Origin: Acidobacteriaceae bacterium
Lineage (GTDB): Bacteria; Acidobacteriota; Terriglobia; Terriglobales; Acidobacteriaceae
Direction: 5' to 3'
Length of the DNA: 64,000 nucleotides
NCBI GenBank assembly: GCA_003132325.1
Contig: PKXK01000075.1
Location: 23,763 to 87,762, forward strand
Shown here one piece after another: positions 26,237-43,526 of this stretch. Below the pieces are notes generated by a model, which was given only the letters and a program-made list of their open reading frames with translations, was not told where the DNA came from and ran no database searches. A program made the position numbers and the translations under genes. Each line of letters starts with the position of its first letter. Position 1 is the first letter of the stretch.

Positions 26237-26240
26237 CTTA

Positions 26241-27452: not shown

Positions 27453-29583
27453 ACCCGCCGCCCACGCGGCCACAACAAACGGTAAGGAAAAGGGCGAGTA
27501 CTTCTGCGGCATCGACATCGGTGGCACGTTCACCGATTGCGTGGTGCGCGACCAGGCGGGACGCCTGACTATCGCCAAAGCGCTCTCTACGCCGGAAGAG
27601 TCTTCCAAAGGCTTTTTCGCGGCGCTCGATGCCGCCGCCGCCAAACTCGGCCTGACTCTGCACGACCTGCTGTCGAACACGCAGCTTCTGCTGCACGGGA
27701 CCACTCTCGGCACCAACGCACTGCTGGAACGCAAGGGCGCCAAGACCGGACTCATCACCACTCGCGGTCACGCCGACGCCATCATCATGATGCGTTCGGT
27801 TGGCCGCTCCGCCGGACTCCCGCTTGACAAACTCCACCACGTCTCGCGTCATCAGAAGCCGGTTCCTCTCGTCCCTCGCAGCCTGATCCGCGAAGTCAGC
27901 GAGCGCATCGACTTCAGCGGGGAAGTTCTCCTGCCGCTGAACGAAGACGAAGCTCGCACCGCCATCCGCGAGTTGCTCGATCAGGGCGTACAAGCAATCG
28001 GCATCTGTTTTCTCTGGGGATTTGCCAATCCTGCCCACGAGATCCGTGTGCGCGAAATGATCGAAGAAATGGCGCCTGACGTGTACGTTACCTGCGGGCA
28101 TGAACTGATCTCCAAACCCGGCGAATATGAACGCGCCGCCGCCGTCGCCATCAACTGCTTCATTGGCCCCATGATGTCGCGCTACGTCATTCGCATCGAG
28201 GAACAAGCCCGTGCCCTCGGATATCGCCGGCCGCTTGTCATCATGCAATCTTCCGGAGGCGTGGCCGGCGCGGCGGAAGTTGCCCGTACGCCGGTCTTCA
28301 CTATCGGCTCCGGGCCCGCCGGGGGCCTCACTGCCAGCGGTTTTCTCGCCTCGCTGCTCAAGCAAAACAATGTTATCGCCTCCGACGTCGGCGGTACCAG
28401 CTTCGACGTTGGATTGGTGAGCGACGGCGTTCCCCTCTCCGGGACGGAGACAACCGTAAATCAATACACATTTTCCGCCCCCCACCTCGATCTGGTCTCG
28501 ATCGGCAGCGGCGGCGGCTCCATCATCTGGGTGGATGAGAAAACCGGGGGCCTCAAAGTCGGGCCCGAATCCGCCGGAGCCAATCCCGGCCCCGCTTGCT
28601 ACGGCCACGGCGGCACGCGCCCTGCGGTCACTGACGCCGACCTGATTCTCGGCTACTACAATCCCGATTACTTCCTCGGAGGGAAGCTGCAACTCGACAA
28701 GGCCGCCGCCACCTCCGCCATGGACAGAGTCGGTCGCCTGCTTGGCATGACCGCCGTGGAGACCGCTGCCGGAGCCGTCCAGATCGTTGAGTTCCAAATG
28801 GCAGAACTCATGCGCCAGATGACCGTCGAACGCGGCTTTGATCCCCGCGATTTCGTCGTCTACGGGTACGGAGGCGCAGCCGGCGCGCACGTCGCCGAGT
28901 ACACCCGCGAATTGGGCTGCCGTCGGGTCGTAGTCCCGCTCGGCGCCACCGCCTCCACCTGGTCGGCGCTGGGAGTCCAGGCGGCCGATCTTCTGCACGT
29001 TTACGAAAAATCGCGGCTGTTCATGGCACCGTTCCCCAGCAAGGAGTTCAACCAGATTTTCGAAGAGCTCGAACGGCCAGCCCGTCTGCAACTCCACAAA
29101 GATGGGCTGAAAGACAGCGATATTGCCATCGAACGCGCCGTGGAAATGAAATTCAAACTCCAGATCCACACCGTCGAGGTTCCGCTGCGCTGCGGCAAGC
29201 TCAGCGACCGGCACGTCAAGGAACTTGAGACTGCGTTCATCGAGAAGTACGAACGCACTCACGGGCGCGGCTCGGCCTTCACCGCCGCCGGAATTGAAAT
29301 CGGCCTTTTCCGCGTGCGGGCACGCGGCCGCATTCGCCGGCCATCGCTTCAGAAAAGGACAGCCGTCAAATCGGCCGGCGCCATCGACCGCCGCGAAGTT
29401 TACTGGCGCCGTTTTAAGGCATTCCGCACAACGCCCATCTACGATGGGGCGCGGCTGAAAACCAACGCGGTCGTGAAGGGCCCAGCCATTGTTCAGCTGC
29501 CCGAAACCACCATCGTCGTTCCACCGCGTGATGAAGGACATTTTGATGGTTACGGAAATTTTCTTTTGACCTTGTCCGACTGA
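27433..29583 (+). CDS. Hydantoinase/oxoprolinase A family ATPase (acetone-carboxylase beta-subunit-like)
   Basis: GIDIGGTFTDCV (Hydant_A_N), ..DVGGTSFDV.., ..IGSGGGSI..; 716 aa. It overlaps the previous gene by 20 nt. Confidence 0.9.
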   Translation: MSTRKVKPAAHAATTNGKEKGEYFCGIDIGGTFTDCVVRDQAGRLTIAKALSTPEESSKGFFAALDAAAAKLGLTLHDLLSNTQLLLHGTTLGTNALLERKGAKTGLITTRGHADAIIMMRSVGRSAGLPLDKLHHVSRHQKPVPLVPRSLIREVSERIDFSGEVLLPLNEDEARTAIRELLDQGVQAIGICFLWGFANPAHEIRVREMIEEMAPDVYVTCGHELISKPGEYERAAAVAINCFIGPMMSRYVIRIEEQARALGYRRPLVIMQSSGGVAGAAEVARTPVFTIGSGPAGGLTASGFLASLLKQNNVIASDVGGTSFDVGLVSDGVPLSGTETTVNQYTFSAPHLDLVSIGSGGGSIIWVDEKTGGLKVGPESAGANPGPACYGHGGTRPAVTDADLILGYYNPDYFLGGKLQLDKAAATSAMDRVGRLLGMTAVETAAGAVQIVEFQMAELMRQMTVERGFDPRDFVVYGYGGAAGAHVAEYTRELGCRRVVVPLGATASTWSALGVQAADLLHVYEKSRLFMAPFPSKEFNQIFEELERPARLQLHKDGLKDSDIAIERAVEMKFKLQIHTVEVPLRCGKLSDRHVKELETAFIEKYERTHGRGSAFTAAGIEIGLFRVRARGRIRRPSLQKRTAVKSAGAIDRREVYWRRFKAFRTTPIYDGARLKTNAVVKGPAIVQLPETTIVVPPRDEGHFDGYGNFLLTLSD

Positions 29584-29595
29584 GGAGGCTCGCTC

Positions 29596-31887
29596 ATGGT
29601 TTCACCGTCTGTGCAATGGGATGGCCGCAACTATCCGTACGTGGCCCCGAAAAAACTCTCGATTGATCGCAGCCTCAAGCTGCACACTGCCGCCGAGGCA
29701 AGCATCGATCCTGTCACCTACGAAGTCGTGCGCCACGCCATGTGGAACATGAATGTCGAACACGGCAACACCATCATGAAGATTTCGGGCTCGCCCATCT
29801 GCGCCTACGGGCACGACTTCAATCCTTGCCTGCTCGATGAGATCGGAGACTTCGTTTTTTTCGGTCCCTTCCTGCAATACCTTGGCTCTGCCACTACCTC
29901 TGCCATCAAGTGGACGCTGGAAAATCGTTCCACTAATCCCGGCATCGAGGACGGGGACATCTTTCTGACGAACGATCCGTGGATTGGAGCCACGCATCAA
30001 TCCGATGTCACCCTGATCGCTCCGCTGTTCTGGGAAGGCAAACTCTTTTGCTGGGTGGGCAACACGCTCCACCAGTGGGATCTCGGCGGGACTTCCCCCG
30101 GGGGCTTCAATCCCCAGGCGCCGGATATCTTTTCGGAAGCCGGCTGCATTCCGCCGATAAAGATAGTCGAAAAAGGTCGCCTGCGCCGCGATATCGAAGA
30201 GGAATACATCCGCCGCTCCCGTGTGCCGCAGTTGGTGGCCCTCGATCTGCGCGCCGAAATCGCTGGCTGCAATGTGGCCCGCGAGCGCATGCTCAGTCTC
30301 ATCAAGCGCTACGGCCCGGAAACCATCAAAGGCGTCATCCGCAAACTCCAGAACGATTCCGAGAAGGCTTTCCTGGCCCGCCTGAACACCATTCCCGACG
30401 GCACCTGGCGCGAAGTCGGCTGGATCGAGATGGCAAACACGCAGGATCGCCATATTTACCGCAACGCTCTCACGCTCACCAAACGAGGCAACAAGCTGAT
30501 CTTCTCCAACGAAGGCACCGACCCGCAGTCCGGCACGCTGAACTGCACCATGGTCGCGTGGAAAGGCGCCATCGCCTCCATGATCTGCGCCCAGATGCTG
30601 TTCGACCAGATGTTCGTGGTCGAAGGCGCCTATCGTCACTGTGAATTCAACGCGACCCCGGGGACGCTGACCTGCGCCACCTATCCCGCCGCGGTAAGTG
30701 CCGCACCCGCTCTGACGCTGCTGCAGACGATTGCGCTGGCCGGACTGGTTATCTCGAAAATGCTGGCCTGCTCTTCCGATCCCGAACTCCGCAAGGAGGT
30801 GCAAAGTTGCATGGGAGCGGCCATGTATCCGATTGCCGCATTCAACGGAATCGATCAGCGCAAATCTCCATTCGTTTCCTTCCTGCTCGATCCGGTGGGC
30901 GCCGCACTGGCCGGCCTCTCGTGGCGCGACGGCGTGGACACCGGCGGTTGGCCCTGGGACCTGCAAAGCACCATGCCCAACGTCGAAGAGCATGAATGGT
31001 TCTATCCCATCTTTTATCTATGGCGGCGTGAACTGAGAGATTCCGGCGGTGCCGGCAAGTTCCGGGGAGGCAACTCCGCCGAACTCGCCTTCATCCCGCA
31101 CAAAACCGATCGGCTCACCTTCATTACCGCAACCGGCCACGCCGCGGTTCCTCCGCCGGGATTGTTCGGCGGATCGCCTCCCTCGACGACCCGCTATACC
31201 ATCAAGCGCGACGCCCGCGTCCGCTCGCACATGAGCGAGACGGGCAAGATGCCCGACACGCTGGAAGATCTGCCCGGCAAGACTGAGTATCTCGCGCCGA
31301 AAAGCTTTAACATTCCCGCCCTTCCCGACGACGTGTTTGTGCTTGCCTGGGCAGGCGCCGGGGGCTACGGAGATCCGCTCGAGCGCGATCCGGAAGCCGT
31401 GCACCGCGACCTGGTGAATGGCAACATTACCGCGGACTGGGCCAAGCAGGCGTATGGTGTGGTATTCGATCAGAGTGGCAAGCTTGATAAAGCCGCCACC
31501 GATCATATCCGCGATCAACTTCGTGCCGGGCGACTGGCCAACGCGCCGAAGAAGGAGCATTTCAAAGCCAACGTGGACGGCGCCCGCCAGGTGGCAGAAG
31601 GGTTGTTGCTCGTCGGCTTCGGCAGCGAGGCCTTCCTCGCCTGCGCCAAGTGTCACACCCGCATCAGCCGTGCTCGCGACAATTACAAGCTGCACTGCGT
31701 AACCGAATCACACCCGGTTACCGCAGCGAATCCGCACATCTTGGATCCTAAAACTTACATCGACGATGCTGTCGTTTTCCAGACTTACGTGTGTCCCGGA
31801 TGTGGCCTGCTCCTGCAAACTGAGATCCTGCGACCGGGCGGCGAACCGCTCTGGGATCTGCAACTCGCCGAGGTGAAGCGCAAGTGA
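29596..31887 (+). CDS. Hydantoinase B/oxoprolinase family subunit (acetone-carboxylase alpha-like) with fused C-terminal gamma-subunit-like Zn ribbon
   Basis: DPVTYEVVRHAMWNMNVEHGNTI.. and ..GAGGYGDPLERDPEAVHRDL.. form the HyuB core. The last ~110 aa carry CAKC...CPGC (two CxxC pairs). Confidence 0.9.
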   Translation: MVSPSVQWDGRNYPYVAPKKLSIDRSLKLHTAAEASIDPVTYEVVRHAMWNMNVEHGNTIMKISGSPICAYGHDFNPCLLDEIGDFVFFGPFLQYLGSATTSAIKWTLENRSTNPGIEDGDIFLTNDPWIGATHQSDVTLIAPLFWEGKLFCWVGNTLHQWDLGGTSPGGFNPQAPDIFSEAGCIPPIKIVEKGRLRRDIEEEYIRRSRVPQLVALDLRAEIAGCNVARERMLSLIKRYGPETIKGVIRKLQNDSEKAFLARLNTIPDGTWREVGWIEMANTQDRHIYRNALTLTKRGNKLIFSNEGTDPQSGTLNCTMVAWKGAIASMICAQMLFDQMFVVEGAYRHCEFNATPGTLTCATYPAAVSAAPALTLLQTIALAGLVISKMLACSSDPELRKEVQSCMGAAMYPIAAFNGIDQRKSPFVSFLLDPVGAALAGLSWRDGVDTGGWPWDLQSTMPNVEEHEWFYPIFYLWRRELRDSGGAGKFRGGNSAELAFIPHKTDRLTFITATGHAAVPPPGLFGGSPPSTTRYTIKRDARVRSHMSETGKMPDTLEDLPGKTEYLAPKSFNIPALPDDVFVLAWAGAGGYGDPLERDPEAVHRDLVNGNITADWAKQAYGVVFDQSGKLDKAATDHIRDQLRAGRLANAPKKEHFKANVDGARQVAEGLLLVGFGSEAFLACAKCHTRISRARDNYKLHCVTESHPVTAANPHILDPKTYIDDAVVFQTYVCPGCGLLLQTEILRPGGEPLWDLQLAEVKRK

Positions 31888-33458
31888 ACATCGGCCTCAT
31901 CGCATCGCGTAACGCACACCGCTATTGCAATAAGATCGCGCTGGTTGACGCCAACGCCGGCCGCCAGGTGACTTGGCGAGAATTCAACGATCGTGTCAAT
32001 CGCTTGTCGCATGCTCTCCTCTCGCGACAGCTGACCAAGGGCGACCGCGTTGCCATCTACTCCAGAAATTCGCTTGAGTACCTCGAACTCTTCATGGCCT
32101 GTGCCAAAACTGGAATCGTGGTTGAACCGATGAACTGGCGGTTTACACCCGAAGAAGTCGCGGCCACGCTGCGTGACGGCACGCCTCGCGTCATCCTGGT
32201 CAGCAATGAATACGCGGACTGCTATCGATCGATCAGCTCCGGTCTGCCGTTCATCGAACTGGTGGTCGGAATCGGCAATGGGCATGGTTTCGACACGGAT
32301 TACGATGCGTGGATCGCTACCTGTGCGAATTCCGAGCCCGAAACCGTCCACACCGTGGGCGATGACGATCTCTACTTCATCTGCTACACCGGTGGCACCA
32401 CGGGCGTGGCGAAGGGCGCCATGATCACCCATAAGAACGCCTACACCACCATGGTGAACATGACGGTTGCCGAGCAGATTACCTCGAACGACGTTTACAT
32501 CATCATGGGCCAGATGTTCCACATCGCAGTGCTCCTGCCGCACGGTTACATGTTCCATGGCGCCAAGGTCATCATTCTCAACTTTGATCCGCGCCGCGTG
32601 TTGCAGGTCATCCAGGAGCATCGAGTCACGACCCTTCTGGCCATCTCCACGATGATGAACTACATCATGGACGTGCCCGGCTTCGGCAACTTCGACACCA
32701 GCACACTCCGTCTCATCTCCTACGGCGGCGGCCCCTTCGCGTCCACCACCCTCGAACGCGCCATGCGAATGTTTCCGGGCATAGGCTTCCTGCAATATAT
32801 GGGACAAACCGAAGTCAGCATCATGTCGGCATGGCTGGGCCCCGAAGATCACGTCCGCGGGTTGGAAGACAATCCCGGCCTGCTCCACTCCTGCGGGCGC
32901 GAGGCCCTTCTTTGTGACGTTCGGGTCGTGGACGAACACGATCAGGACGTCCCGCGCGACGGGAAAACTCCCGGCGAGATGATTGTGCGCGGCGGAAACG
33001 TTATGCGCGGCTACTGGAACATGCCCGAACTCACCGCGGAGACCCTGCGCGGAGGCTGGTGCCACACCGGGGACATCGCCACCTGGGACGCCGACGGCTA
33101 CATGTACGTGGTCGATCGCAAGAAAGACATGATCGTCTCCGGAGGCGAAAACATCTTCAGCGCCCGCGTTGAGGAGATCATCTACCGGCACCCGGCCGTA
33201 AAGGAATGTGCTGTGATCGGAGTCCCTCATCCCGTGTACGGAGAAACTGTGAAGGCCTGCGTCGTGCTGCGGGAAGGCTACACCGCCACCGCCGAAGAAA
33301 TCATCGAGAGTTGCCGCCCTCACCTCGCCAGCTATCAGAAGCCGACCTCGGTAGAATTCCTTGATGCCCTCCCCAAATCCCCAACCGGCAAGCTCCTCAA
33401 ACGGGTCCTGCGGGAAAAACATTGGGGCGACCACTCCCGCCGAGTAGGAGGCGCCTGA
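31884..33458 (+). CDS. AMP-forming acyl-CoA synthetase/ligase
   Basis: GTG start overlapping the hyuB stop (GTGA). ..ICYTGGTTGVAKGAM.., ..GWCHTGDIA.., ..DRKKDMIVSGGENI.., ..PKSPTGKLLKR... Confidence 0.9.
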   Translation: MNIGLIASRNAHRYCNKIALVDANAGRQVTWREFNDRVNRLSHALLSRQLTKGDRVAIYSRNSLEYLELFMACAKTGIVVEPMNWRFTPEEVAATLRDGTPRVILVSNEYADCYRSISSGLPFIELVVGIGNGHGFDTDYDAWIATCANSEPETVHTVGDDDLYFICYTGGTTGVAKGAMITHKNAYTTMVNMTVAEQITSNDVYIIMGQMFHIAVLLPHGYMFHGAKVIILNFDPRRVLQVIQEHRVTTLLAISTMMNYIMDVPGFGNFDTSTLRLISYGGGPFASTTLERAMRMFPGIGFLQYMGQTEVSIMSAWLGPEDHVRGLEDNPGLLHSCGREALLCDVRVVDEHDQDVPRDGKTPGEMIVRGGNVMRGYWNMPELTAETLRGGWCHTGDIATWDADGYMYVVDRKKDMIVSGGENIFSARVEEIIYRHPAVKECAVIGVPHPVYGETVKACVVLREGYTATAEEIIESCRPHLASYQKPTSVEFLDALPKSPTGKLLKRVLREKHWGDHSRRVGGA

Positions 33459-33797
33459 ATGCCAAAAATTGGACAAGGCCTGCTCACTTCCGGCCGCGAA
33501 TGCCAAGGCACGCTGCGCGTCGTGGACACTATTCCGGATGTCCTCCGACTCATGCGGGAGGACCTCTCGGACGTAATCCTCTTCATGCAGTCGGCATCGG
33601 CCACCGCCGCTACTCCGCTTTTTGCGAAGATCAAGGGCATTGTCTGCACTGCCGGTGGGGCCACGTCTCACCTGGCGATCGTCGCACGTGAATTTGATCT
33701 ACCTTGCGTGATGGCCAGCGCGATGGAACACACCAACGGTCTTGACGGCCGCAGAGTCAGACTGAACCAGAAAGGCGAGATTTTTCTCGACAACTGA
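33459..33797 (+). CDS. Stand-alone PEP-utilising-enzyme mobile (phosphohistidine swivel) domain protein
   Basis: 112 aa. ..IKGIVCTAGGATSHLAIVAREFDLPCVM.. is the PEP_mobile signature with the catalytic His. The ATG directly abuts the ligase TGA. Confidence 0.85.
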   Translation: MPKIGQGLLTSGRECQGTLRVVDTIPDVLRLMREDLSDVILFMQSASATAATPLFAKIKGIVCTAGGATSHLAIVAREFDLPCVMASAMEHTNGLDGRRVRLNQKGEIFLDN

Positions 33798-34705
33798 TGG
33801 ATCGCCCCCCCACTCAAACCCGCGTCTACATCAATCTCGGCTTCCCCGAACTGGCGGCCAAGTATGCCAAGCTGCCCTGCGACGGCGTTGGCTTAATGCG
33901 TGCCGAGTTTTTTGCGCTCTCCATGGGAATCCATCCCAAGAAGCTGATCGCCGACGGGGGCGACATTGCGTTCATCGATTCCTTCGCCAATGGCTTGGCC
34001 ACAGTCGCCCAGGAATTCGCACCCCGACCGGTATTCTTTCGAACGCTGGACCTAAAATCCAATGAATACGCCGGCCTCGAAGGCGGCGGCCAATACGAGC
34101 AGCGCGAAGAAAATCCCATGCTCGGCTTTCGCGGCGCCTCCCGCTACCTTGCCGATCCCGAAAGCTTTCGCCTCGAACTCCGGGCGGTGAAGCGCGTGCG
34201 CGACGGAGGCCTGCGAAACGTTCGCCTGCTGCTCCCCTTCGTCCGTTTTCCACGAGAACTGAAAAGATGCCGCGAAATCGTTGAACAGGAGGGCCTGTTC
34301 GCCGATCCGGAGTTCGAACTCTGGATGGTCGCCGAGGTCCCCTCCAACGTCTTGCTGATTGACGAATTTCTGCCGCTGGTGTCCGGCATCTCGATCGGTT
34401 CCAACGACCTCACGCAGCTTATGCTCGGAATTGACCGCGACAGCGCTCGCCTGGCTAAGGAATTCGACGAGCGCGATCCCGCGGTCCAGAACGCAATCGC
34501 AATCATCGCGAAGGCCTGCCGGGCCGCGGGGAGGCCGGTCTCCATTTGCGGAAATGCGCCATCGCGCTATCCGGAACTCGTTCCCAGGTTGATTTCCGCG
34601 GGCCTGACCAGCCTGTCGGTTTCACCGGAAGCGTTTGAAGCCACGCTCAAGGCTGTGGTCGAGGCCGAAGCCATGTTGGGATTTGCTGCAAGACCGCTCC
34701 AATAG
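33797..34705 (+). CDS. Stand-alone PEP-utilising-enzyme C-terminal TIM-barrel (PEP/pyruvate-binding) domain protein
   Basis: ..DGVGLMRAEFF.., ..NPMLGFRGASRY.., ..ISIGSNDLTQLMLG.., ..VSICGNAPS.. are the PEP-utilizers_C signatures. The start overlaps the previous stop (TGATG). Confidence 0.85.
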   Translation: MDRPPTQTRVYINLGFPELAAKYAKLPCDGVGLMRAEFFALSMGIHPKKLIADGGDIAFIDSFANGLATVAQEFAPRPVFFRTLDLKSNEYAGLEGGGQYEQREENPMLGFRGASRYLADPESFRLELRAVKRVRDGGLRNVRLLLPFVRFPRELKRCREIVEQEGLFADPEFELWMVAEVPSNVLLIDEFLPLVSGISIGSNDLTQLMLGIDRDSARLAKEFDERDPAVQNAIAIIAKACRAAGRPVSICGNAPSRYPELVPRLISAGLTSLSVSPEAFEATLKAVVEAEAMLGFAARPLQ

Positions 34706-34759
34706 AACGGCCGTCAGGTTACTGCCGGCCGAATGACGAAATGCTGGGTGCTAACTCCT

Positions 34760-35686
34760 ATGTCTGAACCTCAACCGCAAGACGACTTCATCCATCCCAC
34801 CGGCGAAGAGCCCACCTGGCGCGAAGCCTGCTATTTTGATTTCTTCGATCCCGCCAGCCGCCTCTCCAGCTTCGGCTACATTGGCGTGCACCCCAACCAG
34901 CAAGTTGGCGACGTCATTTTCGCCCTCTGGCGCGACGACGTTCTTCTCGGCAGCTTCACCCGCTGGGACTTCAACATCCCGCGCGATATCGGCGCAGAGC
35001 GCCTCGGCTTCGGGCATCTCTTCTTCCGGCCGGTCGAGCCGTTCAAAACCTGGGAAATTTATTTCGATGATGGCCGCGTCCGCGTGGACACCACCTTCCA
35101 CGCTATCCATCCCGCCTACTTTTGGGGCCAGTCTCACGGTGCGCTCGAGAAAACCAACAGCCATCACTACGAACAGCAGGGACGCTACACCGGCGAAGTG
35201 CGGGTTGGAGCGGAACGCTACAAAATCGATGGCGTCGGCGTCCGCGACCACGCCTGGGGATGGGGCGCCCGCGCGGGCATCCGCCGCTGGATCTGGGCCT
35301 CCGCGCAGTTTTCCAGCGGCTTTGCTTTCAATACCTTTCTGATTACCCTGGCGGACGGCCGCGAAATTCTATACGGATATATCTGGCGGGGAAAACAGAA
35401 CGAATTGATCCGCCGTTCGACGCTGAAGGCTGAATACGCGCCCAAAGGCCAGGCTCCCGCCGCGCTCACGCTCGCCATGGAAGGCCGCAATGGGGATCGG
35501 GTCAGCGCCACCGCTAGAGTCCTCAATGCCTTCAACACCTCGTTCCAGGAGCGCAACAAGACTGGCTATCACTACTTCGGCGCGGCCAAATTCCAATGCG
35601 AAGGCCAAGTTGGCTACGGACAGATCAACGTGCACTGGCAAAAACAGGAAGACCGTCCGGAAAACTGGACGGTCTCGCAGGAGTAA
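34760..35686 (+). CDS. Conserved hypothetical, unknown family B, copy 1 (beta-rich, RDHAWGWG motif)
   Basis: Paralog of 56766-57701 and 60005-60877 (shared ..EPxWREAxYFxFYD.., ..GxGxRDHxWGxx..W..). The MSEPQPQ start was chosen by alignment to the paralogs; ATG at 34733 is possible. Confidence 0.7.
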   Translation: MSEPQPQDDFIHPTGEEPTWREACYFDFFDPASRLSSFGYIGVHPNQQVGDVIFALWRDDVLLGSFTRWDFNIPRDIGAERLGFGHLFFRPVEPFKTWEIYFDDGRVRVDTTFHAIHPAYFWGQSHGALEKTNSHHYEQQGRYTGEVRVGAERYKIDGVGVRDHAWGWGARAGIRRWIWASAQFSSGFAFNTFLITLADGREILYGYIWRGKQNELIRRSTLKAEYAPKGQAPAALTLAMEGRNGDRVSATARVLNAFNTSFQERNKTGYHYFGAAKFQCEGQVGYGQINVHWQKQEDRPENWTVSQE

Positions 35687-35692: not shown

Positions 35693-36871
35693 TCAATTGT
35701 AGGACTCAACGATCAGTGTGATGCCTTGCCCGCCGCCAATGCAGGCGGTCGCCAAGCCGTACTTCCCTTTTCTGCGCCGCAGTTCGAGCAGCAACGTGAA
35801 CACCAGCCGTGTTCCGGTCGCGCCCAGGGGGTGCCCCAGCGCAATCGCGCCGCCATTCACGTTGGTCTTCTCACGATCCAGCCCGAGTTCTTTTTCCACT
35901 CCGAGATACTGCGCCGCAAAGGCCTCGTTCACTTCGACCAGGTCCATGTCCGCGAGTTTCAGACCCGCTTTTTTCAAGGCTTCCTTCGAGGCCGGCACAG
36001 GCCCCAACCCCATCTCGGCTGGATCCACACCTGCGATTCCCCAGGACACGATTCTTCCCAGCGGCTTGCCGCCCGATCCTGCGATCGCGTTTTCATCCGC
36101 GATCACGACCGCGGCTCCGGCGTCAACGATGCCGGAGGCATTCCCGCCGGTGACCGTACCATCTTTTCCAAAAGCTGGCCTCAGCTTAGCCAATGCCTCA
36201 ACGGTTGTGTCGGTCCTTACGTGGTCGTCAAGCTCGTACTGTTCTGTTCCCTTTTTCGATTTGATTTCGACCGGCTGGATTTCTTCCTTCAATCTTTCAC
36301 GCGCCGCCGCGGCGCGCTTCTGGCTCACGCAAGCGAACTCGTCCTGATGCTCGCGAGTAAGGCCATATCTCTTCGCCACACGCTCCGCCGTTTGTGCCAT
36401 GTAAAGGCCGCAGTAGGTGTCGTAGAGAGATGACATCAGCATATCGATCAATGTCGACGATCCCAATCGCAGTCCCCACCGCGCCCCAGGGATGACGAAT
36501 GGCGCCTGGCTCATCGATTCCATCCCGCCCGCCAGCACCCGCGTTGCCTCGCCCAATTGGATCATCTGGGCGCCGCTCACAATGGACTGAATCCCCGACC
36601 CGCACAGCCGGTTCACCGCAAAAGCCGGCCGTTCCTTCGGGATTCCCGCCCGCAATGCTACATGGCGCGCGGCATAGATTGCATCCGGCCCGCTTTGCAC
36701 CACGTTGCCCATCACCACGTGATCGATCTGCTCCGGCGCGGTTCCCGTGCGCTCCAGCGCCGCTTTCGCCGCCACCACCGCAAGATCGGTCGCCGACATC
36801 TCTTTGAACTGCCCGCAGTACTCCGCCATCGGGGTACGTGCTCCGCCAAGTATCACTACGCTCTTCTGCAT
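35693..36871 (-). CDS. Acetyl-CoA C-acetyltransferase (thiolase II)
   Basis: ..VNRLCGSGIQS.., ..NEAFAAQ.., ..NGGAIALGHPLGATG.., ..ACIGGGQG.. form the complete thiolase signature. Confidence 0.9.
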   Translation of the reverse strand: MQKSVVILGGARTPMAEYCGQFKEMSATDLAVVAAKAALERTGTAPEQIDHVVMGNVVQSGPDAIYAARHVALRAGIPKERPAFAVNRLCGSGIQSIVSGAQMIQLGEATRVLAGGMESMSQAPFVIPGARWGLRLGSSTLIDMLMSSLYDTYCGLYMAQTAERVAKRYGLTREHQDEFACVSQKRAAAARERLKEEIQPVEIKSKKGTEQYELDDHVRTDTTVEALAKLRPAFGKDGTVTGGNASGIVDAGAAVVIADENAIAGSGGKPLGRIVSWGIAGVDPAEMGLGPVPASKEALKKAGLKLADMDLVEVNEAFAAQYLGVEKELGLDREKTNVNGGAIALGHPLGATGTRLVFTLLLELRRRKGKYGLATACIGGGQGITLIVESYN

Positions 36872-36897
36872 GAAATCCCCTGAATCGACGGCATGGA

Positions 36898-38610
36898 CTA
36901 TTTACGGACTTTTTGTTGCTCTTGAAGAGCCTTCTGCCGAAGAAGAAATTTTTGGACTTTCCCGGTTCCGGTAGTCTGGAACTGCTCCACGAAGCGGACA
37001 TACTTAGGAACCTTGAACACTGCCACCCGCTCGCGGCAATATTCGACAATCTCACTCTCCGTCGCGGTCTCGCCCTCCTTGAGTTGCACAAACGCCATTC
37101 CGGCTTCCTGCAACTTTTCGTCGGGCACACCCACAACGGCTGCAGCCACGATCTTGGGATGGGTGCAAAGCAGGTGTTCCACCTCGACCGCCGAAACGTT
37201 TTCCCCTCCCACGCGGATCATGTCCTTGATGCGGCCCGTCCACACCAGGTACCCGTCTTTGGTCACGAATCCCGCGTCGCCCGTGTGCAGCCAGCCCGTT
37301 TCATCGAGGGCCTTCGCCGTCTCCTCCGGGTTGTTGTAATACCCCTTCATCACCGTCCAGCCCCGCACGCAGATTTCCCCAGGCTCCCCGCGCCGTAAGG
37401 GCGCGCTGGTGACGGGATCGGCCACCTTGACCTCCGTCCCCGGCTGCGGCCGTCCCATCGTCCCGATTCGTTTCTCGTAGGCATCGTTTTGCCAGTGCGC
37501 GATGCACACATTCGGGCTCCCTTCCGACAATCCATACAACGAACAGATATTCCGGATGCCGATCTCTTCCGCCACCATCCGCAAGATCGCCGGTGTCCCG
37601 GCCGTCCAGCCTTTTGTCAGAGACGCCCGCGAACGCCGCGGGAAGTCTTCGTGATTGCGCATCGCCAGGTACATCGGCTCCAAGCCTGCGTACGCGGTGA
37701 TTTTTTCTTCTTCGATCAGGCGCAGGGTTTCGCCTGCATCGAAATTCGATCCCGTATGCAACTGGTAGCCGATGGTGATCGCCCCCAGCAGCGCACACAC
37801 CGAGCCGCCCACATGAAACATCGGCATGGCGGAAAGCAGCCGGTCTGCTTCATCGAAGCCGGCGCGCTTCGCCATCTGAAAGGCATTGCGCAGGCTCTGC
37901 CCCTGCGTCAACATCGCCGCCTTGGGAAACGCGGTGGTGCCCGAGGTGTACTGCAAAACCAGAACACTGTCGGCGCGGACTTCCTCCTGGCTGCCGGCCG
38001 GGCTCGCGTCACCCAAGCCGAGCGCCTCCGAAAACGATCTCATCCCGGCACTTGCCGCGCCGACCAGAATCAGGTCCCGCAGTTTGGGCAGCGCCTCACT
38101 CTGCCTCTGGCTGCCGGCCGCCTGCATCAACTCCGGACAAATCGCGCGCACCATCGCGATGCAATCGGTCTTCAGCAAAGACGGACAAAACAACAGTGTC
38201 CTGGAATCCGACTGTCGCAGCGCATACTGAACTTCCTCTTTCTGATAGCGGATATTGATCGGGACCATGGCCGCACCCAAAGCGGCCAAAGCGAACTCCG
38301 CCACCGCATATTCCTTGACGTTTGCCAGCCACACGGCGACGTTGTCGCCCCGGCGAACGCCCAGCACGCGGAGTCCGCCCGCAAACCGGCTCACATCCCG
38401 GGCAAATGCATTTGCCGTGATCCGCTCCCCGGCAAAGACAAGCAGTTCCCGTTCCCCCCACTTCGAAACGCACCGCCGCAGGGCTTCCGGCAACGTCGTC
38501 CGGTCCCACTGCATGTCACACTGCATGCCTGGCTCATCTTCGCGGCCCCGCAGGTAGGCCAACTGCTCTGAATCGGAGTGGGCTGCTTCCTTGGCCATGG
38601 GGAGAATCAT
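36898..38610 (-). CDS. AMP-forming acyl-CoA synthetase/ligase
   Basis: ..LQYTSGTTAFPKAAM.., ..GWLHTGDAG.., ..GRIKDMIRVGGENV.., ..QTTGTGKVQK... ATGA overlap with the upstream gene. Confidence 0.9.
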   Translation of the reverse strand: MILPMAKEAAHSDSEQLAYLRGREDEPGMQCDMQWDRTTLPEALRRCVSKWGERELLVFAGERITANAFARDVSRFAGGLRVLGVRRGDNVAVWLANVKEYAVAEFALAALGAAMVPINIRYQKEEVQYALRQSDSRTLLFCPSLLKTDCIAMVRAICPELMQAAGSQRQSEALPKLRDLILVGAASAGMRSFSEALGLGDASPAGSQEEVRADSVLVLQYTSGTTAFPKAAMLTQGQSLRNAFQMAKRAGFDEADRLLSAMPMFHVGGSVCALLGAITIGYQLHTGSNFDAGETLRLIEEEKITAYAGLEPMYLAMRNHEDFPRRSRASLTKGWTAGTPAILRMVAEEIGIRNICSLYGLSEGSPNVCIAHWQNDAYEKRIGTMGRPQPGTEVKVADPVTSAPLRRGEPGEICVRGWTVMKGYYNNPEETAKALDETGWLHTGDAGFVTKDGYLVWTGRIKDMIRVGGENVSAVEVEHLLCTHPKIVAAAVVGVPDEKLQEAGMAFVQLKEGETATESEIVEYCRERVAVFKVPKYVRFVEQFQTTGTGKVQKFLLRQKALQEQQKVRK

Positions 38611-39005
38611 TTCGGCAGGTCGCCCACCATCTGCAACACCTTGGCGCTGTCGTAGAAAATATTGAGCTTCTGGATGAGATTGTTCTTGATGGTAAACACG
38701 TCCACTGCGTCGAAGATCACGTCCCGCCCTGTGGAGGTCCGGCCCTCAAAGTGGATCTCTGCCGCCACGTCGCCCGCCTCGCTCACGAACCACCGCGTTA
38801 CGTCGTCGTAGCGCTTGGGATAAAACTGCAGAACTCCCGCATAGAAATCGCGGATCGCCTTTCGCCCCTCGATGGGCGGAAGCATGGGAAAAGACAAAAC
38901 GCCATTCTCTGCAAAGACTCCCGCCAGATCGTCGAGCCGCGTCTCGTTTACTGCCGCGAAGTAGCTCTTGGCCACCGCTATGTTCTTGTCACCGCTTTCC
39001 GCCAT
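38607..39005 (-). CDS. NTF2/SnoaL-like fold protein
   Basis: 132 aa. ..AKSYFAAVNE..DDLAGVFAENGVLSFP.. Paralog of 50802-51215 (shared ..VFDAVDVFT..YDSAKVLQM.G.LP). Confidence 0.75.
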   Translation of the reverse strand: MAESGDKNIAVAKSYFAAVNETRLDDLAGVFAENGVLSFPMLPPIEGRKAIRDFYAGVLQFYPKRYDDVTRWFVSEAGDVAAEIHFEGRTSTGRDVIFDAVDVFTIKNNLIQKLNIFYDSAKVLQMVGDLPK

Positions 39006-39025
39006 TGTCCTCCTCGACCGGCACC

Positions 39026-39784
39026 CTATTGAGCGCTGAACCCGCCATCCACCGGCAAAGCGACCCCGGTGATGAAACTCGCTTCATCGCTGGCCAGGAA
39101 CAGAGCTGCTGCTGCAATCTCTTCCGGCTGCGCAATCCGCTTCAGCAAAGTGAAGCTGGCATATAATTCGCGAATCTTCCCTGGATCGCTCCCGCCCAGC
39201 TTCTCGCAGGCCCGCTGCAACAAAGGTGTATCCACCGCCCCCGGACACAAGCAGTTCACGCGGATCTTGTGGTCCGCGTAATCCGCCGCCATGCTGCGCG
39301 TGAGTTGGATCACCCCCGCCTTGGACGCGCCATACGCCGAGTATTCCCGCACCGCCACCAGCCCACCCACCGACGACATGTTGACAATCGCCCCGCCGCC
39401 CGCCTTGATGATCTCGGGTACGGCAAAGCGGCTCATGCGGTACACCCCATTCAGGTTGACGCCGATCTGCCGCTCCCACTGGTCATCGTCGGCGGTCGTC
39501 ACCGAACCTGTGGTCTCGATCCCCGCGTTGTTCACCAGGATGTCCAGCCCGCCGAGTTGCGCCACCGCCTCCTGCACCATGCGTTCGGCATCGCGCAGTT
39601 TGGACACATCGCCCACCGTCCGGCCAAACTTACCGCCGCTCTTCTTCACGGCATCGTCGGCTTGGGCCGGATTCACATCGGCAATCGCAACGTTTGCGCC
39701 CTCGTCGGAAAAGCGCTTCGCAATCGCGAACCCAATCCCCGACGCCCCGCCCGTCACCAGCGCTCTTTTCCCTTGCAATCGCAT
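39026..39784 (-). CDS. SDR-family oxidoreductase
   Basis: Start MRLQGKRALVTGGASGIGFAI. NNAG and YGASKAG are present. The ORF-track start overlaps the upstream gene. Confidence 0.9.
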   Translation of the reverse strand: MRLQGKRALVTGGASGIGFAIAKRFSDEGANVAIADVNPAQADDAVKKSGGKFGRTVGDVSKLRDAERMVQEAVAQLGGLDILVNNAGIETTGSVTTADDDQWERQIGVNLNGVYRMSRFAVPEIIKAGGGAIVNMSSVGGLVAVREYSAYGASKAGVIQLTRSMAADYADHKIRVNCLCPGAVDTPLLQRACEKLGGSDPGKIRELYASFTLLKRIAQPEEIAAAALFLASDEASFITGVALPVDGGFSAQ

Positions 39785-39791
39785 ATTGGCC

Positions 39792-40568
39792 CTATTCCTG
39801 GATCTGGTATCCACCGTCAACCATCAAAGCCGTGCCTGTGACAAAGCCTGCCTCATCGCTGGCCAGGAACAGCACTGCGCTGGCAATCTCCGCCGGGGCG
39901 GCCGCGCGTTTCAGAAGCTGGCCTTCGAGATAAGCCCGCTTGATCGCCTGCCAGTCCCCATTGGCCCCGGCTTGCGCCTTGCAGGCGTGCTCGAGCAAAG
40001 GCGTATCCACTACGCCGGGATTCACGGAATTAACGCGAATCTTGTGCTTGGCGAAGTCTCCCGCCATATTGCGGGTAAGCTGGACCACCGCTCCCTTCGA
40101 AGCGCCATACGCCGCCAAATCCGAGTATCCGAGGAATCCGGCGATCGAACCGATATTGACCACCGCGCCGCCCCCAGCCTTGATCATCTCTGGCACAGCG
40201 TACTTGCTCATGCGATAGACGCCACCGAGATTGACGCCGATCTGCCGCTCCCAATCTTCATCGCTGATCTCCACCACGGTCCCCTTGATGTCGATCCCGG
40301 CGTTGTTGACCAGAATATCCAACCCGCCCAGGAACTTCACCGTCTCGCTCACCAGCCGTGTCGCATCCGCCGACTTTGAGACATCGCCGACCAACCCGAG
40401 CACCTTGCACCCGTCTTTGCTGAACTCTTTTTCAGCCCGCCTGCATCCTTCAACGTTGATGTCGGCAAATGCAATGCCCGCTCCTTCGTGCAGAAAGCGC
40501 TCGACGATGGCATACCCAATCCCTGAGGCCCCTCCGGTCACCAGCGCGCGTTTACCTTTCAGCCGCAT
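39792..40568 (-). CDS. SDR-family oxidoreductase (tandem paralog)
   Basis: MRLKGKRALVTGGASGIGYAI, NNAG, YGASKGA. Confidence 0.9.
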   Translation of the reverse strand: MRLKGKRALVTGGASGIGYAIVERFLHEGAGIAFADINVEGCRRAEKEFSKDGCKVLGLVGDVSKSADATRLVSETVKFLGGLDILVNNAGIDIKGTVVEISDEDWERQIGVNLGGVYRMSKYAVPEMIKAGGGAVVNIGSIAGFLGYSDLAAYGASKGAVVQLTRNMAGDFAKHKIRVNSVNPGVVDTPLLEHACKAQAGANGDWQAIKRAYLEGQLLKRAAAPAEIASAVLFLASDEAGFVTGTALMVDGGYQIQE

Positions 40569-40586
40569 GTGAACTCCTTGCCATTG

Positions 40587-41717
40587 TCATTGCGCTGGCA
40601 CCGTCGTCCCCAGCAATTCCTTAATCCGGTCCATACCCTGGAAAGAAGACTTGGCCCGTCCCGGATCCGCGAACGGAGTGATGTTCCACAGCACGAGGTG
40701 ACGCAGTCCTGCAGCCGCCAGCGCGCTCACCTGCTCCGCCACATCCTCCGGCGTGCCATGCAGGGTAAAGTATTCCACCACTTCCCGCGGAACTTTGTTG
40801 ATCACGCGGATGGCATCATGGCGTCCGAAAAGCGAAGGCACATAATCATGGAACCCCGCCGAGCCTTCTCCGAAAGGAGGCTCGTAGCCGAAGCGCTTGA
40901 ACACTTCTCCCGGCAACAGCAGGCAAAGTCCCTTCACCAGCAGGTGATCGAGCAGTTGCGGAATGGCGTTCCGGTCCTCGTCAACCACAACATAAGCCAG
41001 CATCCCAGGTGTTACCGCGTCCACACTGCGTCCGGCTTCCGCGGATGCTTTGCGAATCGCCGCCAGCTTTTCGCCATACTCTGCCGGAGTCATCCTCGTC
41101 GGAAGCCAGCCGTCCGCCAGCTTCCCAGTGATCGTCAGCATCCGCGGGCCGTGCGCCGCAACCCACACCGGAGGCGTCCTGCCTTCATACGGCTCCAGCC
41201 CGAGTACCGCGCCTTCTAACTGAAAATGCTTCCCGTGAAACGAAACCGGATCACCGGCCGACTTCCACAGCAGGCGCAGAACCTGAATTCCCTCTTCGAG
41301 CTTCGAGACAGGCTGGCTGAAGTCAATACCGTAAGGAGTGAGATTGCACTGCTCGCCTGACCCGAGCCCCAGAATCAGCCGCCCGCGGCAGATGTGATCG
41401 AGTGTCAAAGCTGCTTGCGCCAGCATTGCGGGATGCCGCCGCAGGATGTCTGTTACTCCCACGCCTAACTGGATTTTCTGGGTGTTCGCGCCCACCGCGG
41501 ACATCGCCGCAATCGGATCAAAATAGACGTCAGCGCTTTTCTGGTACTTTGCCAGCGGAGTAACATCCGGAGTCCACACCGACCGCGGATGCCATCCCAT
41601 CAGGTGGCAAGGCCACCACGCTGAGTCATAGCCCTTGCTCTCGGCGCGCTGCGCCTGCTGAATCACTTTGTCGAACGGCGGCATGATCCCGCCGGGAACG
41701 CCTAGCTGTATATTCAC
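40587..41717 (-). CDS. Luciferase-like (LLM) flavin/F420-dependent oxidoreductase
   Basis: ..AESKGYDSAWWPCHL.., ..RLILGLGSGE.., ..VWVAAHGPRML..; TIM-barrel LLM pattern. Confidence 0.85.
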   Translation of the reverse strand: MNIQLGVPGGIMPPFDKVIQQAQRAESKGYDSAWWPCHLMGWHPRSVWTPDVTPLAKYQKSADVYFDPIAAMSAVGANTQKIQLGVGVTDILRRHPAMLAQAALTLDHICRGRLILGLGSGEQCNLTPYGIDFSQPVSKLEEGIQVLRLLWKSAGDPVSFHGKHFQLEGAVLGLEPYEGRTPPVWVAAHGPRMLTITGKLADGWLPTRMTPAEYGEKLAAIRKASAEAGRSVDAVTPGMLAYVVVDEDRNAIPQLLDHLLVKGLCLLLPGEVFKRFGYEPPFGEGSAGFHDYVPSLFGRHDAIRVINKVPREVVEYFTLHGTPEDVAEQVSALAAAGLRHLVLWNITPFADPGRAKSSFQGMDRIKELLGTTVPAQ

Positions 41718-41799
41718 AAACGCCCCGATTCGCTTGCGTCTCTATGTGAAACCGTGCCGTTCCAGGCGAAACGCGGAACTGCTATTTGCCTGGACGCGC

Positions 41800-42612
41800 T
41801 CACACCTTGGTCTTGGATCCGCGGAACTCCAGCTTCCGCATGTTCTTCGGATCAATCTTCTTCCTGAGTAACTCGACCTCTTCCACGCTGGGCGCCGGCG
41901 TTTCGGGAACGTCCGCGGGCATCAGCAGTTCGAAACCTGTCTCCTGCTGCACCTCCTTCGGGGTAATCCCGCGGTGCACCGACTTCAGCCGCATGCGCTT
42001 GCTGGTTGGCTCAAAATCCATCACGCAGAGATCGGTCACCACGATCTCCGGCCCGTTGCGCAGTCCCAGCTTCGCCCGCGCATCGCCCCCGGTGAGATAT
42101 CCCGGCGCCGCCAGAAAGTCCACCTTCTCGACGAGGGTCCGCGGGTTGTGGGTGGTGGACCAGATATAGATCCGCTTGTGCAGCGTGCACATGTCGCCCA
42201 TCCCCGCCGAACCCGGCAGACGCACCTTGGGCTTGTGATAATCCTTGCCAATAATGCTGTTGTTCACGTTTCCATACTGGTCGATCTGCGCCCCGCGTAT
42301 GCAGAAAATCTCCAGCGTATTGCGATGCACGTATCCCCACATATCGCCGATCTGCGGCAGGTACATCACGCAGTTCTTCCACATCGTGGGATCGAGCGTG
42401 TTGCCGATAATGTAGCCGGGGTCCGCATCCACGCCCACCGCCCCCGCGACCCAAGTCATTTTCGGGGCATGCGTCTCGCGGGCCAGCATGAACGCTGAGA
42501 CCGGAATATAAGACACAGTACCGTTCAGCATGATGTCGTCATCGGTGAACGCGTGCGCCAGCGTGACCACCATCAGCTCGTCAATCGTGTAGTCCTGCGA
42601 AGTCTTGCCCAT
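41800..42612 (-). CDS. CoA-transferase subunit B (glutaconate-CoA-transferase-like)
   Basis: ..AQIDQYGNVNNSIIG.., ..VEKVDFLAAPG.., ..VMDFEPTSKRMRLKSVHRG... Confidence 0.85.
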   Translation of the reverse strand: MGKTSQDYTIDELMVVTLAHAFTDDDIMLNGTVSYIPVSAFMLARETHAPKMTWVAGAVGVDADPGYIIGNTLDPTMWKNCVMYLPQIGDMWGYVHRNTLEIFCIRGAQIDQYGNVNNSIIGKDYHKPKVRLPGSAGMGDMCTLHKRIYIWSTTHNPRTLVEKVDFLAAPGYLTGGDARAKLGLRNGPEIVVTDLCVMDFEPTSKRMRLKSVHRGITPKEVQQETGFELLMPADVPETPAPSVEEVELLRKKIDPKNMRKLEFRGSKTKV

Positions 42613-42614
42613 GC

Positions 42615-43514: not shown

Positions 43515-43526
43515 TTCCTCTCCCGT

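Follow-up and report, generated by a model that had tools for sequence, protein, structure and literature searches.

A free phosphohistidine swivel protein and a stand-alone PEP-binding TIM barrel form part of a putative phosphorelay in an acidobacterial catabolic operon

Introduction

Enzyme I of the sugar phosphotransferase system (PTS) is the well-known enzyme that uses phosphoenolpyruvate (PEP) without an ATP-grasp domain; the phosphate passes from PEP to a histidine of its swivel domain and from there to a small phosphocarrier. Apart from the sugar PTS and the Dha kinase, we know of no phosphorylation of a small molecule by PEP through a phosphohistidine relay. Here, we analyze two adjacent genes in an Acidobacteriaceae bacterium (GenBank assembly GCA_003132325.1, contig PKXK01000075.1, forward strand, positions 23,763 to 87,762; this stretch of 64,000 nucleotides is referred to below as the window, and positions are numbered from its first letter). 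One encodes a free-standing phosphohistidine swivel protein and the other a free-standing PEP/pyruvate-binding TIM barrel, two domains that PEP synthase (PpsA) carries on one chain together with an ATP-grasp domain. A preliminary description of this DNA had read the pair as a PpsA homolog split at the linker and lacking its nucleotide-binding third.

Two further kinds of enzyme bear on the comparison. The components of two-component small-molecule dikinases associate transiently (PMC12167813). In Sterolibacterium denitrificans, an ATP-dependent 25-hydroxysteroid kinase (25-HSK) and a 25-phosphosteroid lyase together dehydrate a tertiary 25-hydroxysteroid to a delta-24 alkene (PMC8449060, PMC11061730). 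The kinase is a single APH-type ATP-dependent enzyme, and its reaction is fully reversible because the group-transfer potential of the tertiary phosphoester is close to that of ATP (PMC8449060).

The comparative data presented below led us to propose a PEP-driven relay, whose chances of being correct we put at about even. Phosphate would pass from PEP at the TIM barrel to His71 of the free swivel protein and on to a substrate bound by the products of two genes of an uncharacterized family, here called unkA and unkB, after which a lyase would eliminate it.

Results

The swivel and TIM-barrel genes are intact and separate

Both open reading frames (ORFs) lie on the plus strand where the preliminary description had placed them, the swivel gene at 33459-33797 (112 amino acids [aa]) and the TIM-barrel gene at 33797-34705 (302 aa), and both are intact. 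The TGA stop codon of the first occupies 33795-33797 and the ATG of the second 33797-33799, so that the ORF coordinates give the one-base overlap (TGATG) reported earlier. Since the TIM-barrel ATG starts on the last base of the swivel stop codon, the two reading frames differ. The swivel ATG in turn abuts the TGA of the acyl coenzyme A (acyl-CoA) ligase gene upstream (TGA ATG), with an AGGAGG 7 nucleotides (nt) ahead of it.

Searches with hidden Markov models (HMMs) bore out the domain limits. Pfam PEP-utilizers matches residues 39-102 of the swivel protein (E = 9.9e-14), and positions 18-288 of the 293 in the PEP-utilizers_C profile are matched by the TIM-barrel protein (E = 1.6e-64). The swivel domain and the PEP-binding TIM barrel are thus both complete and are carried on separate polypeptides. 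With the NCBIfam models, the TIM-barrel protein aligns to positions 478-791 of the 798 in PpsA. Its best match among solved structures is the PEP synthase 9dae (residues 531-825, E = 3.5e-85), and 2ols was also aligned.

The sequence quoted earlier for the swivel protein, GGATSHLAIVAREFDLPCV, is present and contains His71 (codon 33669-33671), the phospho-acceptor, within the motif GGATSH and the pattern GG..SH..I.AR. The three motifs quoted for the TIM barrel (GVGLMRAEFF, ISIGSNDLTQL, and SICGN) were likewise found, and the set of PEP/pyruvate/Mg2+ motifs is in place: GLMRAE, FRTLD, NPMLGFRG, AEVP, SIGSNDLTQ, DRD, and SICGN, the last with Cys251 (codon 34547-34549). We take these motifs to have the functions assigned to them in pyruvate phosphate dikinase (PPDK), Enzyme I, and PpsA. 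Across 60 members of the TIM-barrel family, R35, E37, R82, D85, N89-E90-Y91, R116, E180, N203-D204, R214, and C251 are conserved, and G66, G67, H71, L72, A73, V75, and R77 are invariant among 46 aligned swivel homologs. The domains are therefore not degenerate, a possibility that the preliminary description had allowed for: the catalytic positions are intact here and invariant, or nearly so, in the 60 TIM-barrel and 46 swivel sequences.

Linkage and domain fusions tie the swivel to unk

We evaluated which genes accompany the pair elsewhere. Fifty-five metagenomic loci were fetched around unk homologs, and all loci were scored with family HMMs; there were 69 nonduplicate unk loci, 29 of them at least 12 kb long. 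The conserved set around the TIM-barrel homologs comprises unkA, unkB, the hydantoinase-type genes hydA and hydB, swivel, TIM barrel, and a gene for a DUF7065/DUF7064 protein. All 29 long loci contain a swivel gene, 26 contain both swivel and TIM barrel, 27 a DUF7065/DUF7064 gene, and 25 both hydA and hydB.

A more divergent arrangement, layout (ii), has swivel, TIM barrel, unkA, and unkB directly adjacent in that order and no visible hydantoinase genes (loci L071, L074, L076, L077, L082, and L090). Its neighbors are genes for ADP-forming acyl-CoA synthetases, PaaK-like ligases, and a histidine phosphatase, to which the high-GC loci L071 and L077 add an amidohydrolase, a luciferase-like protein, and a protein with a metallo-beta-lactamase fold. 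The swivel-TIM-unk module also occurs without hydantoinase genes in L047, a locus of 21 kb that has two DUF7065/DUF7064 copies. Because the module is found without these genes, its invariant core consists of swivel, TIM barrel, and unk, and the hydantoinase-type enzyme is frequent but dispensable.

Three distant unk relatives are fusions of an N-terminal swivel to unk (P0415, 516 aa; P0438, 575 aa; P0498, 777 aa), and all three keep the S-H of the phosphohistidine motif. The fusion partner of the swivel is unk; no fusion to HydA or HydB was seen among the homologs. One swivel-unk fusion gene (L101) is followed, with stop and start overlapping, by a gene for a PPDK_N ATP-grasp protein (Pfam E = 2e-43). 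No TIM barrel accompanies any of the fusion proteins in their loci, and two of these loci (L100 and L101) carry PPDK_N and lack hydantoinase genes.

Locus L100 (ENA ERZ11425561 NODE_243, positions 1-12990) has four swivel domains and three unk domains, one of the latter swivel-fused. Genes for a free swivel, an unk protein, the swivel-unk fusion, and a DUF7065-like protein lie on one strand; the other strand encodes a swivel-containing protein, an unk protein, a CoA ligase, a PPDK_N-plus-swivel protein, and biotin-carboxylase components with their carrier. The locus recalls the kinase and biotin-carboxylase logic of the acetovanillone (Hpe/Acv) pathway, but unk replaces the RIF-like domain.

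The donor modules are mutually exclusive, TIM-type loci being without ATP-grasp and the ATP-grasp-type fusion loci without a TIM barrel. Since the distant relatives pair unk with a PPDK_N ATP-grasp, the TIM barrel of the window stands in the place of the ATP-grasp. On this basis unk would be the acceptor, or substrate, module served by the swivel, with an ATP-grasp as donor in one branch and a TIM barrel in the branch of the window.

The same data bear on the possibility that swivel and TIM barrel serve the HydA/HydB enzyme, which resembles acetone and acetophenone carboxylases. They might re-phosphorylate its bound nucleotide, as DhaM does for DhaL, or supply the second phosphorylation (of an enol or of bicarbonate) that ketone carboxylases require, making it a PEP-assisted carboxylase. 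The hydA and hydB genes lie in this operon, with the unk genes on one side and the swivel gene on the other, and accompany the module in most long loci. Enzymes of this family work via enol-phosphate and carboxyphosphate chemistry (see also PMC5214803). A nearby CoA ligase or transferase and a thiolase would moreover fit a route from ketone to beta-keto acid, CoA ester, and thiolysis. We nevertheless consider this role unlikely, because swivel, TIM barrel, unkA, and unkB stand without visible hydantoinase genes in the 21-kb locus and in 8 shorter contigs, because the fusions join the swivel to unk and never to HydA or HydB, and because no hydantoinase genes are found in the ATP-grasp-type loci L100 and L101.

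No ATP-grasp domain accompanies the pair

In agreement with the preliminary description, Pfam detects no PPDK_N domain in the operon that contains the pair (21193-35686), and the sole PPDK_N of the window belongs to a minus-strand gene at 61001-63682 with a swivel of its own. The longest ORF there encodes 893 aa, made up of the PPDK_N ATP-grasp (E = 5e-79), a middle domain, and a C-terminal swivel (PEP-utilizers, E = 6e-21, residues 816-886); it matches the NCBIfam PRK06241 and rifampin phosphotransferase (RPH)-like models and has no match to the unk HMM. A DUF7065/DUF7064 gene (60005-60877, minus strand; Pfam DUF7065 E = 3.8e-16, DUF7064 E = 1.7e-6) follows it 123 nt downstream. This arrangement suggests a second, ATP-type kinase-lyase pair in the window.

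The preliminary description had considered this dikinase a possible phosphoryl donor for the free swivel. That idea did not hold up: the protein has its own swivel and, immediately downstream, its own DUF7065/DUF7064 partner, and it therefore represents a parallel system and not the missing third of a split enzyme. The actual partners of the pair would be the unkA and unkB proteins encoded upstream (25070-27452) and the DUF7065/DUF7064 protein encoded downstream (34733-35686).

An ATP-grasp protein encoded elsewhere in the genome might complete a three-part, PEP-synthase-like dikinase, in which case the pair would form PEP or, like PpsAB, HpeHI, and CreHI, receive its phosphate from ATP. There are two-component dikinases whose ATP-grasp is a protein of its own (PMC12167813), and our view spans 64 kb of this genome and 10 kb to either side in its relatives. 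Within that reach, however, a PPDK_N ATP-grasp is absent from all 26 related loci of the TIM type that are 12 kb or longer. The ATP-grasp-type relatives keep PPDK_N in the same locus (next to the fusion gene in L101) and have no TIM barrel, and the only PPDK_N protein of the window is already provided with a swivel and a lyase partner. Nor would one expect a gluconeogenic PpsA inside a catabolic operon whose unk partners are obligate. Taken together, these observations make a donor acting in trans improbable.

unkA and unkB define a small family with no fold match in the PDB

The gene unkA (25070-26236, plus strand) encodes a protein of an uncharacterized family with no Pfam or PDB sequence match. 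Its paralog unkB (26241-27452, plus strand) is 34% identical to it (BLASTP E = 5e-75) and adjoins it in most loci. The AlphaFold2 (AF2) model of UnkA is confident (predicted local distance difference test score, 92.8; predicted template modeling score, 0.91), and a Foldseek search of the PDB with this model gave no match (best E = 2.4; template modeling score, <=0.12). As modeled, the unk fold is not represented among solved structures. We also asked whether UnkA and UnkB could be a divergent PPDK_N or RIF-binding domain. This was ruled out by the lack of a Pfam, PDB-sequence, or PDB-profile match; since the model is confident and has no PDB fold match, neither protein is a hidden domain of either kind.

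Residues R37, R105, E/D195-x-R197, G204-P205-Y206, and W229 form a core that is common to UnkA and UnkB and extends across the superfamily. To judge from the alignment, this arginine-rich core is compatible with phosphate handling. Conservation of H203 is confined to the TIM-associated branch, and unk is therefore probably not itself a histidine phosphocarrier. UnkA would instead be the acceptor or substrate module for the phosphohistidine of the swivel, with UnkB as its probable heteromeric partner.

The family is small, with 306 relatives found by a profile search of 1.84 billion representatives. In one subfamily (P0441, P0453, P0460, P0476, P0489, and P0498), the proteins end in a conserved extension of about 170-380 aa; these C-terminal segments are 27-44% identical to one another, match no Pfam family, and do not resemble the swivel, TIM-barrel, or DUF families.

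The downstream gene is related to 25-phosphosteroid lyase

The gene at 34733-35686 (plus strand) encodes a DUF7065/DUF7064 protein (Pfam E = 1e-14 for each domain) of the NCBIfam Rv3169 family. A profile built from 10 such sequences matched the PDB entries 9fzn, 9g2i, and 9g4c, all annotated as 25-phosphosteroid lyase, with E = 2.7e-8. When the profile was built from 39 sequences, the match strengthened to E = 3.1e-21 for 9fzn and 9g2i and to 4.9e-20 for 9g4c, mainly over the N-terminal domain. Only the family profiles make this connection; as a single sequence, the 34733-35686 protein did not match 25-phosphosteroid lyase in the PDB. On the strength of the profile matches, the protein is a putative phosphate-eliminating lyase. 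Where genes were called (L001-L004 and L040-L042), its gene is the one directly after that of the TIM barrel; in most layout-(i) loci, the distance from the TIM-barrel start downstream to this gene is about 0.9 kb.

One locus, L040, has a gene for an APH-family phosphotransferase (15413-16483, minus strand; 356 aa), the family to which the Sterolibacterium 25-hydroxysteroid kinase belongs. This gene and phytoene-desaturase-like genes lie within 6 kb of the swivel, TIM-barrel, unk, and DUF cluster. These neighbors reinforce the connection to sterol side chains.

If PEP is the donor, a phosphorylation of the 25-HSK kind would become irreversible. The opposite direction is conceivable, a high-energy phosphointermediate made with ATP on UnkA/UnkB being passed to His71 and then to pyruvate at the TIM barrel, so that PEP is formed and energy conserved. 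The TIM-barrel half-reaction of PpsA and PPDK is reversible. Tertiary phosphoesters can have an ATP-like transfer potential (PMC8449060), an ATP-using HydA/HydB enzyme is encoded nearby, and an APH-type kinase is present in some loci (L040). Such a flow would, however, be uphill, because the transfer potential of PEP is far above that of ATP-level phosphoesters. The putative phosphate-eliminating lyase encoded alongside suggests that elimination uses up the phosphoester, which is then not recycled, and the homologous ATP-grasp-type loci point to substrate phosphorylation as the ancestral direction. We accordingly give reverse flow little credence.

The pair looks like a recruitment and not a fission

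Homologs of the two proteins were sought among 5.8 billion proteins and counted as sequence clusters. Stand-alone TIM barrels form at least 120 clusters with identities of 59-93%, mostly of 290-315 aa and some shorter. For the swivel, 114 of 114 stand-alone clusters are unfused, with lengths of 92-125 aa and identities of 34-96%. The junction between the two genes varies among relatives, from a 1-nt or 4-nt overlap to a 29-nt gap. The nearest genomes, at 94-96% identity, are Acidobacteriaceae/Terriglobales metagenome-assembled genomes (MAGs) from peat and palsa.

The earlier reading of a PpsA split at the linker stood for one half of the pair only. The TIM barrel is of PpsA derivation, with about 50% identity, whereas the swivel reaches only 22-28% when set against the swivels of the same PpsAs. 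Neighbor-joining (NJ) trees, in which the TIM barrel was compared with 16 PpsAs and the swivel with PpsA and RPH-type swivels, gave the same division: a PpsA-derived TIM barrel and a swivel outside the PpsA lineage. The stand-alone TIM barrels (71 sequences, the divergent layout included) form a clade separate from the TIM domains of 16 full-length PpsAs in 200 of 200 bootstraps, and the TIM barrel of the window is at most 50% identical to those domains. In 195 of 200, the swivel of the window falls into one group with the swivels that accompany unk in L098, L100, and L101, and neither PpsA nor RPH-type swivels enter this group. The difference in lineage favors recruitment of a PpsA TIM barrel to an existing swivel-plus-unk system over fission of a PpsA, and as far as these alignments go, recruitment into a preexisting system is what the pair looks like.

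A frameshift or an assembly error within a PpsA gene, or decay to a pseudogene, could leave two ORFs in different frames with a one-base overlap, as a single-base error might, but this reading, which the preliminary description had named as its own possible undoing, is excluded by the comparative data: more than 100 independent clusters, down to 34% identity for the swivel and 59% for the TIM barrel, keep two genes with differing junctions, the catalytic residues are invariant across both families, the upstream neighbor is an intact CoA ligase gene with no ATP-grasp remnant, and the swivel is not of PpsA lineage.

The Terriglobia MAG MFD01872.bin.1.96 (L001/L010, 2461-3658) has its unkB ortholog called as two genes of 261 and 140 aa, and the downstream AMP-ligase gene is also split, into 230 and 364 aa. 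These splits are probably frameshift errors or decay in a long-read assembly.

The pair sits in a catabolic operon within a larger gene island

The two genes belong to an 11-gene plus-strand operon that runs from an electron transfer flavoprotein (ETF) beta gene at 21193 to the end of the DUF7065/DUF7064 gene at 35686. The order is ETF beta, ETF alpha, iron-sulfur (FeS)/CCG oxidoreductase, unkA, unkB, hydA, a hydB fusion, acyl-CoA ligase, swivel, TIM barrel, and DUF7065/DUF7064. The first three genes (21193-25019, plus strand; Pfam), the third of which encodes a membrane protein, form the head of the run, and the FeS/CCG gene is found upstream of the unk genes in L001-L003 and L005-L010 as well.

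HydA (27433-29583, plus strand; Pfam and NCBIfam) is a Hydantoinase_A-type ATPase subunit that is acetophenone-carboxylase gamma-like or caprolactamase alpha-like; it scores nearer to caprolactamase alpha than to acetophenone carboxylase, and every score is under the equivalog cutoffs. The hydB product (29596-31887, plus strand) joins a Hydantoinase_B domain (Pfam E = 1.6e-98) to an acetone-carboxylase-gamma-like C-terminal domain (Acetone_carb_G, E = 7.6e-7), which is an acetone-carboxylase-gamma/ApcB-like zinc domain. The AMP-forming acyl-CoA ligase gene (31884-33458, plus strand; Pfam AMP-binding E = 5.8e-79), whose stop abuts the swivel start, is found between hydB and swivel in a subset of related loci.

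To either side (506-21005 and 35693-50698) the operon is flanked by a large catabolic gene island. It encodes Ltp2-like proteins of thiolase fold that carry a ChsH2-type OB domain, CoA-transferase subunits in at least five pairs or fusions, acyl-CoA dehydrogenases, an enoyl-CoA hydratase, an old-yellow-enzyme/Pyr_redox_2 fusion, and a phytoene-desaturase-like flavoprotein. Four luciferase-like oxygenases are present, as are SDR, SnoaL, DUF2889, amidohydrolase_2, and glyoxalase-fold proteins and an ETF with a quinone-side oxidoreductase. By its annotation, this gene set resembles sterol- or terpenoid-type side-chain and ring degradation. Further along the window, a minus-strand gene at 51899-55180 encodes a TonB-dependent-receptor-like outer-membrane protein of 1,093 aa with CarboxypepD_reg, Plug, and OMP_b-brl_4 domains; this barrel may be the uptake component for the substrate of the island.

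Further copies of two of the families lie nearby. A DUF7065/DUF7064 gene (56766-57701, minus strand; E = 4e-117 with our own HMM, and Pfam) and a third unk paralog (57795-59036, plus strand; E = 5e-85 with our own unk HMM, no Pfam family) are divergently transcribed and are followed by a gene for a protein with a metallo-beta-lactamase fold (59118-59930, plus strand). No swivel or TIM-barrel gene adjoins this pair.

Discussion

The relay proposed here would run in three steps. The TIM-barrel protein would first bind PEP, phosphorylate His71 of the free swivel, and release pyruvate; the conserved residues, together with the way PpsA, PPDK, and Enzyme I work, argue for this step. The phospho-swivel would then act as a diffusible, HPr-like phosphocarrier that docks on UnkA/UnkB and phosphorylates the substrate bound there, most likely a hydroxyl of a sterol- or terpenoid-like compound, as gene linkage and the domain fusions suggest. 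Finally, in this operon, the DUF7065/DUF7064 protein would eliminate the phosphate to give an alkene, a step that its homology to 25-phosphosteroid lyase points to. The net result would be an energy-driven dehydration, and the relay a PEP-driven analog of the ATP-dependent dehydration of sterol side chains. The HydA/HydB-type acetone-carboxylase-like enzyme, the CoA ligase, and a divergently encoded thiolase would carry out neighboring steps of the pathway (ketone activation or carboxylation, CoA activation, and thiolysis) and probably stand outside the relay. The observations behind this scheme are domain identity, residue conservation, linkage, fusions, the mutual exclusion of donor modules, and lyase homology; from them we infer which way phosphate flows, the kind of substrate, unk as the acceptor site, and the chemistry of the lyase.

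In broader terms, and somewhat short of an even bet, the system may be a PTS-independent machine powered by PEP, in which a free swivel shuttles phosphate to the unk pair, a lyase homolog is added in many operons, and members of a single enzyme superfamily can exchange one donor module (ATP-grasp or TIM barrel) for the other. With the same reserve, we suggest that hydrolysis of PEP drives the dehydration or another activation of an otherwise unreactive alcohol when peat Acidobacteriota and other uncultured bacteria break down sterols or terpenoids.

Several points weigh against this interpretation. The relay is known here from genes, which leaves all of its steps biochemically putative, and sequence does not fix which way the phosphoryl group moves. 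The fused and ATP-grasp-type relatives are only about 25% identical to the unk proteins of the window, and the trees are NJ trees of short domains with PpsA represented by 16 sequences. Some loci depart from the expected gene set. L041 has a TIM-barrel homolog (60% identity) with a DUF7064 gene at 1813-3663 and no visible swivel or unk, and L086 has unk and swivel without a TIM barrel. A DUF7065/DUF7064 gene is missing immediately downstream of the TIM barrel in six layout-(i) loci (L060, L062, L068, L069, L072, and L081), and in eight short contigs (2-9 kb) that have the swivel-TIM-unkA-unkB layout, not even a broad profile detects one. Co-occurrence in 25 of 29 long loci leaves room for a direct functional tie to hydantoinase A/B, and a 64-kb window leaves room for an orphan ATP-grasp elsewhere in the genome. 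As a separate observation on L041, F420-related genes lie upstream on the opposite strand.

The literature searched, which covered clusters of hydantoinase and PEP-utilizing genes, stand-alone swivels, DUF7064/DUF7065/Rv3169, and 25-phosphosteroid lyase, did not yield an account of a system like this one. If the relay is real, it could be a third route for PEP-derived phosphate, next to the sugar PTS and the Dha kinase. It would mean that a PEP-binding TIM barrel can replace the ATP-grasp donor of the relatives and that a swivel can act as a free carrier protein. The proposal gives a first functional context to the unk family, for which there is neither a Pfam model nor a PDB fold match. It would also extend the 25-phosphosteroid-lyase family (DUF7065/DUF7064, including the mycobacterial Rv3169 family) to kinase-lyase pairs in uncultured bacteria of soil, peat, and sediment, and it points to a possible, so far unrecognized step, driven by energy input, by which recalcitrant lipids (sterols, hopanoids, and terpenoids) are turned over in the carbon cycle of peat.

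One of the closest known systems is that of 25-HSK and its lyase. The gene after the TIM barrel encodes a homolog of the crystallized lyase, the surroundings resemble sterol side-chain catabolism, and the proposed chemistry (phosphorylation followed by elimination of phosphate) is the same. Unlike 25-HSK, the kinase proposed here would be a four-protein, PEP-dependent relay, and the lyase homology is remote and strongest in the N-terminal domain.

Another is PpsA of the archaeal/Dehalococcoidia/Saccharibacteria type. The TIM barrel is about 43-51% identical to its C-terminal domain, aligns with that domain end to end, and keeps the catalytic cysteine. With PpsA the swivel shares the phosphohistidine motif (His71), and the TIM barrel the full set of PEP/pyruvate/Mg2+ motifs. 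Here, however, there is no ATP-grasp, swivel and TIM barrel are separate polypeptides, the swivel is of a different lineage, and the pair is encoded in a catabolic operon together with obligate further partners. The TIM barrel does not reach the NCBIfam PpsA equivalogs (343.8 bits versus a cutoff of 598 for NF005057 and 332.9 versus 739.75 for TIGR01418).

Enzyme I offers the precedent for using PEP without ATP-grasp and for passing phosphate from PEP to a swivel histidine and a phosphocarrier, although in the proposed relay the 112-aa swivel would itself be the carrier. The TIM barrel here is of PpsA lineage (105.2 bits with the PtsI model TIGR01417, against a cutoff of 341.7; the swivel matches only PtsI positions 153-227). 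A chain of 112 aa leaves no room for an HPr-binding subdomain, there are no HPr or EII genes, and the acceptor would be an enzyme-bound small molecule. DhaK/DhaL/DhaM is likewise a kinase of ATP-dependent ancestry that switched to PEP-derived phosphate via a phosphohistidine protein, but DhaM receives its phosphate from Enzyme I and HPr and not from a TIM barrel of its own, and the protein families are unrelated.

The preliminary description had likened the pair to split PEP-synthase-like kinases of non-pyruvate substrates such as phenylphosphate synthase, and as a comparison of multicomponent relays with a swivel histidine this is apt. PpsAB, HpeHI, CreHI, and rifampin phosphotransferase all use the swivel histidine to carry phosphate to a catabolic substrate other than pyruvate, and the distant unk relatives use an ATP-grasp donor of the same kind. 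Those enzymes draw on ATP via PPDK_N and have a RIF-binding-like domain fused to the swivel, whereas here a PEP-binding TIM barrel is the putative donor and the swivel is free. The presumed acceptor, unk, lacks a fold match in the PDB although RPH structures are deposited there (PMC12167813). By analogy with these systems, then, the one encoded in the window appears to be a hybrid, with the first half of Enzyme I and HPr (PEP to histidine to carrier) and the second half of the small-molecule dikinases (carrier to catabolic substrate).

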